A stretch of DNA of 64,000 bases from Kondoa subrosea. Lineage: Eukaryota. Both the position numbers and the translations under genes were made by a program. Below the pieces are notes generated by a model. It was given only the letters and a program-made list of their open reading frames with translations. It did no database searches and was not told where the DNA came from. Positions 40,562 to 48,857 of the stretch are shown piece after piece; position 1 is the first letter of the stretch, and every line of letters begins with the position of its first letter. Location: NCBI GenBank assembly GCA_039545335.1, contig BCIN01000004.1, forward strand, positions 1,292,925 through 1,356,924, read 5' to 3'.

Positions 40562-41546
40562 TCAAATGAATTCCAATGGATCCTTGTCAACCTCGCTGAC
40601 TACTACTTTATACTCTTCTTTCACTTCACCAGAGTCCGCTCGAGCAGCGTTGATTTCTTTGGCGAGCTTTGGCGCAAAGTGCTTGAGGAAAGGTCTTTCG
40701 GTATTGGAATGATTGCCTGCTTCGCATCAGCACGAACGTTTGGAGTAGGATAGCAGACGAACAAAGGATAACATGAGTGCCTCGAGCTGTTGCTGCGAGC
40801 AACTCATGATGAGAAGCTTCTCCTGTTAGCCATGCATCTGTTCCAACATCACGAAGCATTGAAGCGCCTAGCCTGACTTCAGCTCAAAGGATATCAGTCT
40901 GCTAGAACGACTGACCACTTCCTGCGCATATCGCAATGCTATGTACTTTTCCTTTGTTCGGCGTGCTTGATCGCGCAAGCATGACTGTTTCAGAAGTTGA
41001 GTATAATCCTCGAAGCGCAACACCCAGCTCACCTGTTTTCAGACCCAAATGCTTCTTGACTCTTTGCACCAGCTCATCAATATCTGTATGCTCGTCCAAA
41101 TTCATAATCATTCCTTCTCCAGCATCTTCCTGTCCTTCTACACTACAGTTCAACGACTTCAATCGCTTGGTCTTGCCTTGACCTAGACCGGAAGCTAAGA
41201 AATCGTTGATTCCTCCTACTGCAGCATCCAATGCCGAATGAGGAGAATACACGCTGATGCCCCTCTGAATGCACGACATCAAAGTAGACTGCAGTGCGAT
41301 CTCAGAATTCAACCGTTTGAGTCCACCAAATATCGGAGGATGATAAGACACAATCACGCCTGTATCTGAAGGAGCTGCAGCAAGTACTTCTGCTGTCAAA
41401 TCGATGGTGAGCAAGACTGTTCTTTGATTTGAGGCAGCTGAGAGTGCAGGCGGAGAGAGAAGAGTTCCTGTATTGTCCCATGAAGATGCTAGCGAAAGTG
41501 GTGCTAGACGTTCGAAAGAAGTCTGTACTGCTTTAAGTAGGGCCAT
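40562..41546 (-). CDS. NIF3: NIF3-like (GTP cyclohydrolase 1 type 2 family) protein
   Basis: APLSLASSWDNTGTL, LLTIDLT, YHPPIF, VYSPHSALDA, IAICAGSG, TGEASHHE and HSNTER. Confidence 0.95.
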
Positions 41547-41703
41547 GACTGCTATCTGAGAACCATCAGAAATCTCATAAAATTGCCTTGAGCACCAACA
41601 GCGAGTAGACTATACCCAGAGCCATCGAGAATTGGCTGGAGATTACCCTAGACTATATACCAAAACTCCTTGATTCCCGCTTGTAGCGCTTTCCTTACAT
41701 GCA

Positions 41704-44700
41704 ATGGTCGAAATCTCGAATTATTCTCTGGATCAAATCACGGCTCTAGGCATTGACGAAGGCGACGCTAGACGAGCTCAGGCCAAGTTTCCAAATAGTC
41801 TAGAAGCGGCTATTGATTGGGTCTTTACTGCTGAAGTTGAAGATGACAATGCTATACCAGCTTTGATTTCTGATCCGTCCGCAGTCAGCGGCGCTCCTCC
41901 TTTCTCTTCTACTTTCACTCCTGTTCAAGAGAATCCTCCGGTGCTGGATAGTTGGAAGGATATACCAGGAAATCAAAACGCAGCTCAGCACGCAAGTGGA
42001 TCAGAATGGCAATCTTACAGAGATATACCCGTCGCTGGTGATCAGACGATATCTCCATACTTTGCACTACCTTCAGGTACTCAAGTACCCACCCAACCAA
42101 TGTCTTCAGTGTCAAATACTTTGAGTAATCCAATGGGTCCTGTCAACAGACCAAGGAGTCCGCCGCCTTCTCGTCCCGAACGTATTGTACACGAAGTCCC
42201 AGACGACGATGATGACATGGCGAAAGCTTTAGCTCTGTCCATTCAAGATATGCATCAAGCTTCAAATACAGCTGGATGGTCTGCTGCAAATGGATCATGG
42301 CAGCAGGATCACGATACCGAGATGTTACCTGCGGACAGACCTCCTGCATCCAAATCAGTTGTTCTAAGAGAACCAAGCAAAACCACAGAAGAAGAAGATC
42401 TCGCAAAAGCTATTGAAGCTTCGCTTGCTAATGCACCTCCAACTTACGCTCCACCTGAACAAACATATGAAGACAGCTTAACGCCAATGGATCAGCTTCG
42501 TGCAGCGGAAGAAGGAGCGCCTGTCGTCTTGCGGACTACATCACCTTTCCTCTCTGCACTTTCTGCTTTACTTCAAGCACTTTATGCTAGCGAACCTTTT
42601 CGCGAATCTCTCATCTCTTTACCCCTCACTCAACTCGCAGCAGATGGTGTCTTTGCTTTTTCCTATCAGTCCTATTGGCGAGGGGATGTGGTTTGGCCGA
42701 TACCAGCTGGTACCCTGGAAATACAGCGACAATACCATATCTTGGCTTCTCTTCAACGCTTATTCGTCTTCATGAAGTATACAAAGCGCAAGATCATCAA
42801 TATTCACGATGTAGTCCATGCCTTGGCGATCGATGCGAATACTGATCACATGCGGGAACCTGTACGGTTTTCAAGTGGTTCGTAAACATGTTGCGAAGGA
42901 TTTGATCTTCGCTCACACCCTGTTCTATAGCTTGGCTTGGATTCATCATGGAAGCTTATGAACATGTCATCACTGAAATGCGCGGTGCCAACCCCTCAGA
43001 AGCAGAACAACTACTTTTCCGGCAACGGCGAGCTGCTTGTATACCATCAGGAACTTTGTGGTCGTACGATAAAGAAGAAGAAGATTCTGCTCTCCCTGCT
43101 GCGGAACAAAATGCACCAGCTTTATGCGTCAAACTAGATCCACCAGAAATTAATTCCTTACATACTGCTTTAGCTTCTTCCGTCTTGTACTTTTCTGCCG
43201 AGCAAAAACAGATGATGCTCGTTTCAAGAAAACCGGAAACTTTGGTCGTTTGTCTTGAAAGAAGGCAGCAATGGTCAGAAAAGGATTTAGCTTTGTTTGG
43301 CGAGGGGAAGAATGTTTTTGATATTGAGGAAAGGATTTGGGTAGATCGATATGAAATTGGAAGAAGGAATGAGATTTTAAAAGCGAGAGAGTGGGAGAAA
43401 GAACTGTTGGATCAGAAGAAAGTACTGGAAGAGCGGAAAAAGCTGTTGAGCGTCCATCAGGTTCGTGCCTTGGTAAATCAAGTTGCGAGTGCTCATGGCG
43501 ACGAATTCAATAGGGAAAAGATATGTTTGAAACCATGACTAGTACGATCGAGTATTACGAGAAGATGGCTCGACCCAAAGATGAAGAACACGCCAAGAAA
43601 CAGCAGGCTATGAAGAGCAAGCTTCAACAGATGCTTATGTTTATGACTCAAGAAGTTGATAGTAAGTTGCTATCTTGCCATTCAGTATTGTGTTAAGCTT
43701 ACTGAGAAATCGCTAGAAATGAATCAGCAAATTGCTGAAATTGATAGAGAATTGGACAATCTCTTCTCCGGAGATGAATGGAAGCAATCTCCTCCTTACG
43801 ATCTTACTGCTCTGACCATGCACGATGGACTACCTGGAAAGCAACATGTGTTTGCCTATGTCAAGACCTCGGACGGCAGATGGCATAAAGCTATCGAAAA
43901 TCGACTAGAAGAGGTTCGTTCTTTACTACCAGACTGCTACGCTAAGCTAACGTTCAGTATAGTCCTCTTTCGAAGCACTCTCTTCAGATACTGCTGGCTT
44001 GCACCTACGAGCCGGCGTGTACACTCTTGTTTATACAAAACAAGGCAGTGATACAGATACTAAGTCTGCCGGACCACAAGACCTGTTGGTGAGTGGATTC
44101 CATATCTAAAAGATTCATGTACTGACTGATGCGGGACAGCATGCCGTCAACCAAGATAATCACACCTTTAAGGAACAGTACCCGCCTGATATGACTTCGG
44201 CCTGGAATTTACCCCCTTTGCGCGAGGCTCATGCTTCTGTTGGCGACACAATGCAGATGGATGAGGAGATCATCCAGTTCCCTGAGGTGTCAGAAGAAGA
44301 AACACTTGCTGTCGATATTCATTTGCCTGCACCAGCAGATGAAGCAGAAGCGCAGTCTCTCGAGGCGCAAATGGCCGCAGTCTTGCCGACTAATACTGCT
44401 GCGGCTAATGAACTGCCCAGAGAGACTGTACCGCAACCCACCGCGGGCATCGAAGGCGTTCCAGAGAAGCTTTCCGACCAAAGCACACTTCCTGTCGAAC
44501 CTCAAAAGATGTCAGAGCAAGTCCCTTCGGTCATTGCACGCAATTTACGAGAATCTTCCGGCCCGTTGGCGACCGAAAATGCTTATCGATCGCCTCAAAC
44601 GCAGCCCTCGCCGCCGGAAAAGGCTTTGTCGCCCATGCTTTCAATTGAAGGCGTTCCGTCGCCGACGAATTTAGCAGACAATGCTGCATCTCCGATACCT

Positions 44701-46362
44701 AGCATTTCTCAATCCACACCGGCTGCTCAAGAATCGGAAGACAGCGAAGATGAAATACAATTCACTGGCGAGAATTTGCCTGTTCCATCTATGCGCCTGA
44801 GGGGAGGTGCGCTCACCGACGAAGAGGATGACTCAGATGATAATGATGATGCTTCGTCTTCCTACTCAGCCGTAACGGAAGTTCTCTTGGGACGAGCTTA
44901 TCCAATTGCTCCCGATACGGTCTATGATATTTACGATCTGCAAGGCTTCGTCGGTGGTCGACCTTTATTCATCAACCCGATGTTGCCTTTAGCGAAGGAA
45001 GATGTCATGTGCGAGGTCTGCAATAAAGATGAACCAATGCGTCTTCTATTACAAGTGAGCACTATTCAACGGTCTAGTAAACATGGTTTGATCCTAGCTT
45101 CACCTAAAGCTCTCTGCTGCTCCGATCGATAATGACGATGCCGCCTTCAGACATCTTTACACTTACGCTTGCACTAGCGGGAATTGCTTGAAGCGAGATC
45201 CAACCAAGTCGATCAAAGTCTTTCGCATTCAATTACCTTTAGAAAATCCATACCATCCCTTCGATAAAGATTTGCCAGCCAATGCACAAAGGGTAGAAGA
45301 TGAATTACCTCTATTGAAACAAGCAAACGAGATCTGCGAGGATGCAGGTGAGTGATCGCACTTCTTTTTCATCAGAGCAGCTGATGTCGGAATCAGTGCT
45401 ACGAGCTTGCGCTGTCTGTGGATTGGATGGCGTTAGGCTTTGTTCTGGCTGTAGACGGCAAAACTACTGCTGTAATAGTCATCAGTTGATCGCTTGGAAG
45501 CATCACAAAGCCCAATGTCGGAAAGCGCAAGCTGAAGCAACGACTAAAGCAGCTGCACAAGAAGAAGCTCGTGCACGAGGAGAAGATGTACCTCCGGTAG
45601 AGGACGAAGAGTTTCTCAAATTACCTGATCTACCTGAAGAAGATTTGCTTAAGGCAATGTGGAAACCCAACTACATACGGTCAGAAGATGAACCTGCTTC
45701 CGATGTCCCGTCGAAACGGAAGCAACCTCCCACTGCGGTCGATGGAAGAGCAATCGAAATTAGCGAGGAGGAAGCACCGGATTCTGCTGATACCCAAGAA
45801 CCAGAAACTAAGACTTCCATTGAACCAGTCTTCTTGGAATTCATCCAACGTACACAGAGAGTGAACCAACAAGTGCTGCGGTAAGTTGCAGTTTCCCATA
45901 TCCTGCCAATCACTGCTAAGACGTGTTTCTGAGCAGCTACTACCGGACCACCACTAATGCAGAAGAAGATGAACCTCCTCTTTGGGTTAGCGCAACTGGT
46001 CACATTCCTTCACCTTCAGCGATACCTATTTGCGAAAACTGCAATGCTCCGAGAACTTGCGAAATGCAAATCATGCCTTCCATCATCACCAAACTTGGTG
46101 TTGACGACACCAAAGAGGACAGTTTCGATTTCGGTACGATAGCAATCTACAGTACGTCTTCACAATTGGTTTTCGAAACCTATCGAAATACCATGTTGAT
46201 TACCTTGATTCAGCCTGCAGCTCGAATTGTGTAACGAAACCAAAGTTTACTCGTCGCTCTGCTAAATCCTTAGCGAAGATGTGGGATCCAGAATCTGGGT
46301 GGTCGAAGGAAAGGGTAGTATTTCAAGCAATTTCTGGCGAAGAGAATTTGGCACGAAGATGA
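41704..46362 (+). CDS. Fusion ORF: UBA + 2 UIM + inactive USP (USP25/Ubp2/Rup1-like), linker ending in MRLRGG, then PDCD2/Tsr4-type protein (zf-MYND + PDCD2_C)
   Basis: UBA (ITALGIDEGDARRA...AAIDWVF); UIMs DDMAKALALSIQ and EEDLAKAIEASLA; His box MHDGLPGKQHVFAYV; GVYTLVY. In-frame splice into ORF 44191-45132, then VGGRPLF, CEVC..MRLLLQ, MYND CAVC..CSGC..YCCNSHQ..WKHHKAQC, QVLRY, CENC, EMQIMP and FDFGTIAIYTC. Confidence 0.8.
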
Positions 46363-46478: not shown

Positions 46479-48857
46479 ATGCCATCTGCACTCGGCAAAG
46501 ATTGGCCTGATTCGACGTTGATGCCCCCGCTTGTGTTCGGGCTTGAGCCAAAGCGCATGCAGACCACCAAGGGCTCGAAAGTGGGCCTTATTCTGCTGCA
46601 TTGACAACATCAGTCTTATGTATTCGGCAGTACTCTATCTTTGCCCCAGGACCCAACGACGTTGCTAAGCTGCTTCGACACCCTCCTTTTGTTGGCCATG
46701 ATTCCCTCTTAGATCTGCCCAATGAACTGTTATCTCGAATTCTTGAAATGGGCCATGCGGAAGCCCTAGAGCACGTCGAATTTGGGATCGAAGGTTTCGG
46801 CGCTAGGTCCAAATTATGCTTGCTCGCTACTGTGCATCCTCGCTTGCGCGATATGGTTCGGCCTATGCTCTATGCGGAAGTCAGTCTGGACGATAAATTA
46901 AAGTATGACCTGTTTGCTCGGACATTGAGAGAATGGGAAGGCGATCGCTTGGATTGTGTCGCCACTTGGTCTCCGTTATCATTCTTGCGTACCTTGGGTC
47001 TGGTAGGTAGAGGGCAAAACAAGGGTAGGTCAGTTAATCCAATACACTCGCAACCGCTGAGCCTGCGCAAGATCCCGAGTACGAAACTCTGCTACGTATA
47101 CTTGAAGGCCATCTCACCCAGCCAATCGTCTTGCGGGTGGATTACATCACAATGTTGTACTTGGAAGGGGAAATCAAGATTGCACGCGCATTTGAAGAAG
47201 CCAGACCAGACGCTGTCAAGAAGTACAGCGATCTCAAAATTAAGGAACTCTCGATAGAGTATGATACTGCTACTTCTGGCGTTCAGCCAGGTAAATCATG
47301 CCTGGCGAAAATCGTCCAGTAATTGACTATTTGCGTTAGGTCACGCACTGCCTCAAGTCGACTGGATCTGCCTAGTAGACATATGCTCAAGGCTCAAGCC
47401 TCTCAAGATCCTCAGATTGTCCTGGTGTTCTTTGGCGGGTGAACCTCCTCGAGACGGAAAGAGGCTACCCCATTGTCCTCAGCTTGAAGAGCTTTACATT
47501 GACCGAAGCTATTGGATTCCTGGAGTTAGTAGAACAATAGGATATTGTATGCCTGGCGTGGGTCGAGCTTTCGACATTTTTGATCCTGCTGATTTATGAT
47601 CAAAGATCCAAAAACTAGAATACGATGGTGGTAAGCTCGAGCACTACCATAAGCTGATCATTGCTGAGCTCTCTTCTGGGCAGTCGGAAACAAAGAGAAA
47701 GGTGTTTTTTCGCGTTGCGCAACTTCTTGACCTCGGATCTGATGAACGTGGTTACAGCGATGTTTGATGGTTCGTACCGTCTTCAGATTGCTCCAAATCG
47801 TTTCTTATCGGCAGGACAGTCCTAGGTAGTCAGTATGAGGTGCCGCAGGACACACAAAGAGCTATCTCAACTGGCAAACCTCTCAAGACACCTAAAGTGA
47901 TTCAATTTGGCTTCGGTCAACAGCTGAGCAGCTTGGCGTAGGCTTTGTATTCAGGCCCGCAACCTGGAACTAAGTTTTGTTGTCAGTATCTTTTGGACTC
48001 GACCAATTTGGAACAATTAGTAAGACTCTTTATCCGAAGACACAGGTGACCTGCTTATCTGTCGTTCGCAGTGTTCACCTGAAGTCTGAACTGATCATCA
48101 CTACGTAAGCAGTTCTCGAGTTCGCGACCTATTGTATCTGAGTGTTCCGAGCAGATTGGTTCACTGCAAGAACTTGACTTCAATAGCCTTGGATCAAGTC
48201 GCGTTTTGGGAAGAAGATAAAGACAAGAAGCACGGATCACTTTCACCTATCTATAGCATCACAACCAATATCCGTGATCTCGAACTCCGGCAGTGCAGCA
48301 ACAAAACACTTATGGACCTATGCAAAGTAGCTCGAAGATTGCATGCACTAAGAAGAATGACTTTGGTTATGCAGCAGGAGGCAAAGTATTACCTTGTCAG
48401 AGAAGAATACGAAATCAACAATGACGATAAACTTAGTGAAGAGCAAAAGAAGGTAGAGAAAGATAGATTACCGAACGATCAGATCAGAACGAAGCAGAAT
48501 GCAAGGCATCAAAACACGCTGGCTGTCGCCATGCATAGCAGAAGTGTGAAGCTGACTATTGATGGGTCACAATACGGGTTAGTTCAGCTCTGTCTTTAAT
48601 TGTCTATGAGCTCACAATATGCTGGCAGATCGAGTGATTGGCCGTTGCTAGTTGGAGCTGACCTTGAAAGTGTTGAAAATGGACTTCGGAATTACGGTTA
48701 CTTTGTGAATGAGGTCGAGATTCCAGGTTATAGATCAAGTACTACATGGTCAGCTCGCGCTAGTCCAGCAAAGAGGTGTGTCATCTTTCGAGCTCTTCAA
48801 CAACAACTGAAGTGCTTGCCAGTGAGATACATTGACTTGACATCTTCACACTATTGA
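46479..48857 (+). CDS. F-box-like protein with LRR-like C-terminal region
   Basis: SLLDLPNELLSRILE...LATVHPRLRDMVRPMLY F-box-like motif; downstream LxxLxL segments (LKILRLSWC, LEELYID, LTSIALD, IRDLELRQC). Exon structure approximate. Confidence 0.6.

Follow-up and report, generated by a model that had tools for sequence, protein, structure and literature searches.

A ubiquitin-tail hexapeptide at the joint of a USP25/28-like pseudo-protease and PDCD2/Tsr4 in Kondoa subrosea: a candidate deubiquitinase-processed fusion precursor without a ubiquitin fold

The C-terminus of ubiquitin reads L-R-L-R-G-G. A near copy of this tail, the hexapeptide MRLRGG, is encoded in a 64,000-nucleotide stretch of the Kondoa subrosea genome (contig BCIN01000004.1, positions 1,292,925 to 1,356,924 of the forward strand; called the window, and numbered from its first letter), where it lies inside one gene that fuses a protein resembling the ubiquitin-specific proteases (USPs) USP25 and USP28 to a complete PDCD2/Tsr4 protein. 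The fused coding region (41704..46362, + strand) consists of ten exons, all on the + strand, at 41704-42877, 42931-43460, 43514-43661, 43717-43913, 43963-44088, 44140-45054, 45110-45347, 45397-45880, 45937-46151 and 46214-46362. The nine introns between them are 49-62 nt long, run from GT to AG and have donors of the fungal type (GTGAGT, GTAAGT, GTTCGT, GTACGT and GTGAGC). After splicing, the region forms a single open reading frame (ORF) from ATG 41704 to TGA 46362 with no internal stop, in which the motif is followed by PDCD2, as a preliminary description of this DNA had proposed; it encodes 1391 amino acids (aa) with a calculated mass of 154.8 kDa. The parts follow each other in the order UBA domain, two UIMs, USP25/28-like domain, disordered linker of about 200 aa, MRLRGG, an alanine with an acidic stretch, and the complete PDCD2/Tsr4.

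The N-terminal half begins with a UBA-like domain (aa 9-44, 41728..41835, +), which matches Pfam UBA_7 at E 7.7e-05 and 23 bits, under the 27-bit cut-off, and which weakly resembles the UBA domains of USP5 and USP13. The two UIMs (aa 167-180 and 228-242, 42202..42429, +) are recognized by Pfam UIM (E 2.7e-07, 30.4 bits against a cut-off of 21). The USP25/28-like pseudo-protease domain occupies aa 272-745 (42517..44199, +); it is interrupted by introns 1-5, carries a long coiled-coil insertion and ends in a DNHxF helix at the start of exon 6. The Pfam UCH match of this domain in exon 4 stays below the cut-off (17.6 against 23.9 bits, E 0.0031), and the best match of exon 1 to a solved structure by sequence, USP25 chain 5o71_A, is weak (E 0.016) and spans the stretch from the UIMs to the Cys box. 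The orthologue P0017 (1093 aa), with which the window protein aligns colinearly, was folded by AlphaFold2 on an alignment of 11 long homologues; the mean predicted local distance difference test value (pLDDT) was 62, and the USP-like residues 165-645 were modelled confidently. With this model, Foldseek returned USP28 at the top (8p1p_A, E 7.1e-23, target template modelling score, TM-score, 0.78) and USP25 6h4j_A at E 2.3e-20, and the USP28 and USP25 chains together covered E values from 1e-19 to 7e-23 and target TM-scores of 0.69-0.79 at 16-20% identity. As judged from the predicted structure, the N-terminal two thirds of the protein is of the USP25/28 type, with a UBA domain, UIMs and a USP fold that has a long helical insertion.

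The catalytic columns of the USP fold were scored on 13 sequences, namely the window protein, 11 fused proteins and the stand-alone protein P0002; the homologue P0066 falls short of the region. In the HMMER alignment to USP25, Ser284 of the window protein (42553..42555, +) stands opposite the Cys of GNTCW, and Cys is found in this column in none of the 13 sequences (S5 A2 V2 G2 N1 R1). The catalytic-His column, which was set by MAFFT only, holds His in three of the 13 (aa 661 of the window protein and two rust-type sequences) and Ser or Asp in the other ten. By these residues the USP-like domain is a pseudo-enzyme. The label 'USP-like' given in the preliminary description is thus upheld for the fold, on the structural matches to USP28 and USP25, and fails for the activity, the catalytic Cys being absent throughout. 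With that Cys missing, the chain contains no active USP-fold or papain-like protease; this excludes self-cutting like that of USP1 or the viruses, and any cut would need an enzyme that acts in trans.

The pair formed by Ser at the Cys column (42553-42555) and His at the His column (43845-43847) is unique to the window protein among the aligned sequences; the yeasts that bear the Ser lack the His, and the rusts that bear the His carry Val at the Cys column. The stand-alone P0002 (803 aa) has the UBA-UIM-pseudo-USP arrangement without the PDCD2 part. It is labelled as a fern protein (Adiantum nelumboides) and shows the fungal-type layout, the catalytic-Cys column holding Arg; a fungus that lived in the sampled fern may be its true source.

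The passage from the USP-like domain into the linker crosses intron 5 (44089..44139, +; 51 nt), which has the signals GTGAGT, TACTGAC and CAG and contains an in-frame TAA at 44107-44109. Removal of the intron joins GPQDLL to HAVNQDNHTF in frame, exactly as had been proposed, and a MAFFT alignment of the window joint QDLLHAVNQDNHTF with DDLKRAVARDNHAF and similar (DLKRAVARDNHAF-type) joints in 12 homologues contains no gap. The first conserved block of exon 6, DNHxF, lies upstream of the first in-frame ATG of that exon (44191), so exon 6 must be translated from exon 5; the block forms a confident helix (625-643) of the USP-like domain in the P0017 model and is also present in the stand-alone P0002. 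Over 932-1080 aligned positions the window protein is colinear with 11 full-length or near-full-length fused homologues at 24-28% identity. In P0066 (on a 108-kb contig; a cluster mate of P0001, which was the only match to exon 6 in the first word-indexed search), the frame is free of stops from the last USP-like strands through the linker into PDCD2, with about 18 extra residues where the window has intron 5. We infer that one mRNA carries both halves in K. subrosea.

If the 51 nt stayed in the mRNA, however, the frame would end at the TAA, and the locus could be read as two ordinary genes that have been misjoined, the USP-like gene ending at this stop and PDCD2 starting at ATG 44791 with MRLRGG as its N-terminus. 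A Met does stand exactly where a stand-alone PDCD2 would begin, and the homologous model P0047 was called from it. We regard this reading as extremely improbable, because the 227 codons between the intron stop and ATG 44791 (44110-44790) contain no in-frame stop, a state that none of 20,000 mononucleotide shuffles retained, and because P0001, P0003 and P0066 conserve the protein sequence of the linker, whose first block is the C-terminal helix of the USP-like domain and recurs in P0002. Moreover, fused models exist in ten independently annotated genomes, and seven fragments have uninterrupted ORFs over the joint. A separate PDCD2 translated from ATG 44791, which the preliminary description had named as the opposing case, is weakened further by the replacement of that Met in 25 of 46 motif-bearing sequences and by the poor context of the ATG, with T at -3.

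Retention of intron 5 would lead to a stop at TAA 44107 and a stand-alone pseudo-USP protein of 731 aa. Such retention is not a conserved switch, since no stop occurs in the equivalent segment of P0066 and several other species are uninterrupted at this place.

Exon 6 opens with the C-terminal USP-like helix and continues as disordered linker (aa 726-942, 44140..44790, +), which matches no Pfam family and is 38% identical to P0001. The motif itself, ATGCGCCTGAGGGGAGGT at 44791-44808 (+; aa 943-948), translates as MRLRGG within a stop-free frame of 340 codons (44110-45132) and copies the C-terminal six residues of ubiquitin except that Met replaces the initial Leu. At the joint (44791-44811) it is followed directly by Ala, so that ...LRGG precedes a residue other than Pro. 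Ala949, which would be P1' of a cut after GG, and the acidic spacer behind it (aa 949-972, 44809..44880, +) would make up the N-terminal tail of a released PDCD2. The PDCD2/Tsr4 body (aa 973-1391, 44881..46359, +) has both Pfam domains above the cut-off, zf-MYND at 45408-45518 in exon 8 (+; E 7.4e-07, 29.6 bits against 22.7) and PDCD2_C at 45968-46150 in exon 9 (+; E 1.3e-16, 60.9 bits against 30). The N-terminal block of the family with its CxxC is present as well, and an exon 6 profile retrieves stand-alone PDCD2 proteins from about profile position 240 onward.

No ubiquitin fold was found before the motif, in agreement with the preliminary description: exon 6 holds no Pfam family, no beta-grasp fold precedes the hexapeptide, and in the AlphaFold2 model of P0017 the linker (645-783), motif included, is coil with pLDDT of about 25. 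Translated in six frames, the window (127,996 residues) has a single R[LI]RGG, where composition expects 0.22 occurrences, and 0.0006 within this protein. A chance occurrence of the motif was rejected on the composition and shuffle counts and on the conservation pattern, and a 2A/StopGo peptide was rejected as well, the joint reading PVPSMRLRGGALTDE, without NPGP.

Beside the motif, the linker contains blocks that are kept only within the clade of the window (DNHxFKxxYP..WNLPxL, MQMDE, AVDIHL, LEAQMAA, AYRSP..QPS and DEIxFTGE), and microbotryomycete-type sequences share other blocks (TPMSVD and DELEPLIP). These may be further short linear motifs.

The fused family is not limited to K. subrosea. 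Word-indexed searches gave a single match to exon 6 among 1315 candidates of near lengths (P0001), none among 4042 of longer lengths, and a single match to exon 1 among 8000 scored at longer lengths (P0002). The family surfaced only in an exhaustive profile search with exon 6 and P0001, which found 63 proteins at E <= 0.001. P0001 is 38% identical over 98% of exon 6, with PSMRLRGG identical letter for letter. Eleven of the 63 matches are long (891-1324 aa), ten being complete fused proteins and one, P0030, being cut at its N-terminus. The ten long matches that are named all belong to Pucciniomycotina and cover three classes: Sporobolomyces koalae, S. salmoneus, S. phaffii, Mixia osmundae, Pseudohyphozyma bogoriensis, Rhodosporidiobolus ruineniae, Meredithblackwellia eburnea, Cronartium quercuum, Microbotryum intermedium and Microbotryomycetes sp. 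With each of these ten the window protein shares about 25-28% identity. Database names of the fused models include 'uncharacterized protein', 'UBA domain-containing protein', 'MYND-type domain-containing protein' and 'programmed cell death protein 2'. Other organisms contribute seven ORF fragments (P0005, P0006, P0028, P0029, P0038, P0056 and P0066) that run without interruption from the C-terminus of the USP-like domain through the motif into PDCD2, and in P0056 the motif, LELRGG, comes just 9 residues past the end of the USP-like domain.

An uninterrupted fused ORF of 1191 aa, P0071, lies on a contig of 3738 nt, and four of its seven cluster mates are 5'-shortened with the same C-terminus. 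Since the window gene has nine introns, P0071 and its mates are read as contigs of spliced transcripts, and P0071 is probably a spliced transcript. In the same cluster, P0070 and P0073 end in apparently frameshifted tails, and P0069 is a 5'-shortened version. Scans of metagenome contigs with A1 and P0071 gave no confirmed locus of relatives.

Outside the fused group the two halves occur separately, as had been predicted. The pseudo-USP part stands alone in P0002, and stand-alone PDCD2 matches lack the motif; six of these are named and come from chytrids and zoopagomycetes. In the ESM Atlas, the clusters nearest to P0019 are stand-alone UCH/UIM/UBA proteins of 486-870 aa, mostly from Basidiomycota and Ascomycota, with scores of at most 0.86 that make them leads only; these leads, all scoring below 0.9, suggest stand-alone USP/UIM proteins in other Basidiomycota. 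Every named example of the fusion comes from Pucciniomycotina, and as far as the sequences can tell the fusion and its motif are old. Among the PDCD2 matches without the motif, P0045 and P0058 (574 and 599 aa) begin differently, with some other N-terminal extension of about 230-250 aa and no LxGG upstream of the acidic tail; elsewhere, then, PDCD2 has acquired other fusion partners.

Conservation of the motif was tabulated over 65 sequences (the window protein, P0001 and the 63 matches; P0002, which has no PDCD2 part, was left out) under the rule that [LI]xGG occurs within 75 residues upstream of the GKVGGxP block, a rule that fixes P4, P2 and P1 by construction. The motif is carried by 46 of the 65, that is, by the window protein, P0001 and 44 of the 63 matches, and these are all 46 of the linker-bearing sequences. 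Over the 46, the residues are M21, L21, A3 and S1 at P6; R39, Q2, V2, A1, H1 and E1 at P5; L41 and I5 at P4; R40, K3, S1, M1 and W1 at P3; G46 at both P2 and P1; and A35, G8, H1, M1 and S1 at P1', which is never Pro. The outer flanks have an entropy of about 3 bits and P7 one of 2.4 bits; across P6 to P1' it drops to 0-1.4 bits. In an unguided MAFFT alignment of 11 long proteins (A2), L757, G759 and G760 are invariant and A761 nearly so, with the surrounding linker otherwise unalignable, so the expectation that RLRGG would be conserved and its flanks would not has been borne out. The exact ubiquitin tail LRLRGG is found in 14 of the 46 (P0010, P0012, P0016 and P0017 among them), and the consensus of the fungal motif equals that tail at all six positions.

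The distance from GG to the GKVGGxP block is 37-66 residues in the 46 sequences, and the spacer is acidic; in stand-alone PDCD2 proteins the same block lies 22-76 residues from an acidic N-terminus. Because the spacer matches the stand-alone tails, a cut after GG would yield a normal-looking PDCD2. Of the 19 sequences without the motif, one (P0007) is a 78-aa fragment beginning at the core; the other 18 are PDCD2 proteins that lack the linker, and most of these open with Met and an acidic tail. P0064 has LEGG 86 residues upstream, which was taken as chance. At P6 the Met is replaced in 25 of the 46 (Leu in 21, Ala in three, Ser in one) and is therefore not a conserved start codon; an internal start at this place, with Met in 21 of 46 only, was rejected. 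In P0010, by inspection, no Met occurs between GG and the folded core, so its PDCD2 can only be made as part of the precursor.

What stays invariant in the motif is L-x-G-G and not R-G-G, and this argues against three other readings: an arginine-methylation site, a mimic of uS5 and a site for an Arg-specific protease. The first two would make the hexapeptide an RGG-type site, either methylated itself or, as an internal pseudo-client, imitating the RG-rich N-terminal extension of uS5/Rps2. PDCD2/Tsr4 proteins of yeast and human bind uS5/Rps2 as its dedicated chaperone (PMC7736825, PMC6648895, bioRxiv 10.1101/559146), and the N-terminal extension of Rps2 undergoes both arginine methylation and chaperone binding (PMC13627120). 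R-G-G is indeed present in 40 of the 46 sequences, but the Arg before GG is swapped for Lys, Ser, Met or Trp in the other six, whereas the L/I at P4 and the GG never change, a pattern that fits LxGG instead. RGG regions are usually repeated, and here there is a single copy; we hold an RGG-type site to be improbable.

Another protease, for example an Arg-specific metacaspase that cuts after RLR, would find Arg at P3 in 40 and at P5 in 39 of the 46 sequences, within an exposed disordered linker. Yet GG and L/I are kept more strictly than either Arg, and the match to the ubiquitin tail at six positions would have to be a coincidence. The six sequences without Arg at P3 include three with Lys, which an Arg/Lys-specific enzyme could still cut, and three with Ser, Met or Trp. 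Such a protease is very improbable.

The reading that we favour, at a likelihood slightly short of an even chance, is that MRLRGG is cut in trans by a ubiquitin-specific protease, which releases PDCD2. One gene would give one 1391-aa precursor with both halves, and the hexapeptide would be exposed in the disordered linker, where a ubiquitin-specific protease acting in trans would read it as the C-terminal tail of ubiquitin and cut after GG. The C-terminal product would be a PDCD2 of 49.6 kDa that starts with Ala and has an acidic tail of ordinary length, and the N-terminal product would be a ubiquitin-binding pseudo-USP of 105 kDa ending in ...RLRGG. We infer both the cleavage and the identity of the enzyme. 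The cleavage reading draws on the invariant LxGG core, around which P3 also takes Lys, Ser, Met and Trp and P5 also takes Gln, Val, Ala, His and Glu; LxGG is the part of the ubiquitin tail that USP-fold clefts read. P1' suits a cut too: Pro is absent there, and 45 of the 46 sequences have Ala, Gly, Ser or Met. Ubiquitin-fusion cleavage tolerates any P1' except Pro, and these four are stabilising N-terminal residues. The preliminary description further suggested that the free GG might allow the N-terminal product to be conjugated; this is unlikely, as activation by E1 requires the ubiquitin fold.

Several points weigh against cleavage. Chief among them, ordinary deubiquitinases are far less efficient on tail-only peptides than on ubiquitin, and neither Pfam nor the P0017 model places a ubiquitin fold before the motif. 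The sole USP fold of the chain has Cys in none and His in three of the 13 sequences at its catalytic columns. P1' is His in P0001 and P0066, the closest relatives of the window protein, and His is a destabilising N-terminal residue. Arg is missing at P3 in six and at P5 in seven of the 46 sequences, so the copy of the tail is imperfect in places, and the counts over these 46 mutually related sequences do not represent independent events. Finally, the precedent of USP1 needs the catalytic Cys of the protein itself, and C90S blocks its cleavage (PMC4326527).

The copy of the ubiquitin tail could also serve as an uncut docking motif, which binds a USP-type cleft (that of its own pseudo-USP domain or of a partner deubiquitinase) as a pseudo-substrate while the precursor stays whole; we consider this rather unlikely, though far from negligible. 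The motif would then act as a tether or an autoinhibitor of the PDCD2 half, with free ubiquitin as a possible competitor. The same chain indeed has a well-folded USP25/28-like domain that is no longer able to cut; pseudo-enzymes often keep ligand binding, and USP25 is autoinhibited by its own insertion peptide on the ubiquitin-binding surface of the neighbouring subunit. Docking would explain naturally why the catalytic residue is missing in cis, and in all fused sequences the motif comes after the USP-like domain, with a gap of only 9 residues in P0056. However, docking leaves unexplained the small non-Pro residue at P1' and a tail after GG whose length and charge resemble those of the tails of stand-alone PDCD2. 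Between domain and motif the linker ranges from 9 to more than 200 residues, a spread that docking tolerates but does not require. AlphaFold2 packs the P0017 motif (pLDDT about 25) against no domain, a weak objection given an alignment of only 11 rows. A complex prediction of P0017 residues 165-690 with 738-785 gave a score of 0.01 against a mark of 0.34; it was run without alignments or controls and is not used as evidence either way.

If cleaved in trans after GG, the fused protein would be akin to the fusion precursors of the deubiquitinase type, from which it is set apart by the missing ubiquitin fold and by the attached pseudo-USP. In Ub-eL40, Ub-eS31, FUBI-eS30/FAU, Sde2 and TUG, ...LRGG or the diglycine likewise lies exactly at the joint to an unrelated protein (PMC8122580, PMC8013793), and FAU, SDE2 and TUG are cut there by deubiquitinases behind a ubiquitin-like (UBL) fold (PMC8013793). 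As with PDCD2, the downstream partner in several of these precursors is linked to ribosome production, and the products are thought to act apart. Unlike them, the fungal protein has the six-residue tail only, with no beta-grasp fold, and its upstream partner is a UBA-UIM-pseudo-USP of 105 kDa and not a modifier. The enzyme that processes TUG is a USP25 isoform.

A diglycine without a ubiquitin fold before it is known from USP1, which cuts itself at G670/G671 in a flexible inserted domain and needs Cys90 to do so (PMC4326527). Both USP1 and the fungal protein are USP-fold proteins with a ubiquitin-like diglycine in a flexible region, the fungal site being known from sequence and that of USP1 as the place of the cut (PMC4326527). 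USP1, however, is active and probably cuts in cis, C90S abolishing the cleavage, whereas the Cys column of the fungal proteins has Cys in none of 13; and the fragments of USP1 are degraded, whereas the C-terminal product of the fungal protein would be a chaperone of the essential type.

In coronaviruses and arteriviruses, a bare LxGG followed by a small residue is likewise placed at the domain joints of polyproteins, and these joints are read by papain-like proteases of the USP fold or OTU fold, which are also deubiquitinases, without the body of ubiquitin. LXGG is the consensus of the viral papain-like protease joints. The fungal case is different in that it concerns a cellular gene with one joint and with no active protease in the chain. 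To USP25 and USP28, the best structural matches, the fungal protein is alike in having a UBA-like domain, UIMs and a USP fold with a long helical insertion in the same order, and unlike in that the Cys is lost in 13 of 13 and the His kept in three of 13, that the identity is 16-20% and that PDCD2 is fused to it. The C-terminal part shares with PDCD2/Tsr4 proteins the PDCD2_C domain, the MYND finger, the N-terminal VxLG...GKxGGxP...CxxC block and the acidic N-terminal tail, but while these proteins are stand-alone in the yeast, fly and human work consulted, here PDCD2 is the C-terminal third of a 1391-aa precursor. None of the precedents in this comparison (FAU/SDE2/TUG, USP1 and the viral joints) unites a tail that lacks the fold with a dead USP in cis and with a cellular chaperone as its cargo.

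The cleavage reading can be extended to a cellular polyprotein in the style of the viral ones, in which a fold-less tail of six residues is enough to let a host deubiquitinase separate the pseudo-USP scaffold from PDCD2, a ribosome chaperone of the essential type, and which has been kept across a fungal subphylum. We propose this tentatively, as somewhat less than evenly likely. The enzyme might be recruited via the UBA and UIM modules or by a USP25/28-type pairing with the pseudo-USP domain, and the N-terminal product might keep its ...RLRGG tail in its own dead cleft.

A description of the fusion or of the motif was not found in the literature, subscription journals and supplements lying outside the search. 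For PDCD2/Tsr4 in Pucciniomycotina no literature was found, for LRGG gene fusions only general reviews, and for LRLRGG as a linear motif or a fungal USP25-type pseudo-deubiquitinase nothing relevant. If the motif is cut, processing of the ubiquitin type would take place without a ubiquitin fold in a cellular protein, and substrates of deubiquitinases could hide as short linear motifs in disordered regions. The fusion would then join Ub-eL40/eS31 and FUBI-eS30 as a third kind of ribosome-linked fusion precursor, with an assembly chaperone and not a ribosomal protein as partner, and the chaperone of uS5 and a ubiquitin-binding pseudo-enzyme would be made 1:1. If the motif is not cut, the protein would present a clear natural pair of pseudo-enzyme and pseudo-substrate in one chain. 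The fusion is also a candidate shared derived character of Pucciniomycotina.

The surroundings of the gene contain several minor features. An out-of-frame ATG is present 5 nt upstream of the start codon 41704 (41699-41706, context ttacATGcaATGgtc) and would open a short upstream reading frame overlapping that start codon. An ORF of the NIF3/DUF34 family (40902-41609, -; Pfam E 2.6e-34) is arranged head-to-head with the fused gene, the two frames being about 95 nt apart, and a short promoter region is probably common to both. An open frame of 236 codons without a Pfam match lies at 46547-47257 (+), downstream of the fused gene.

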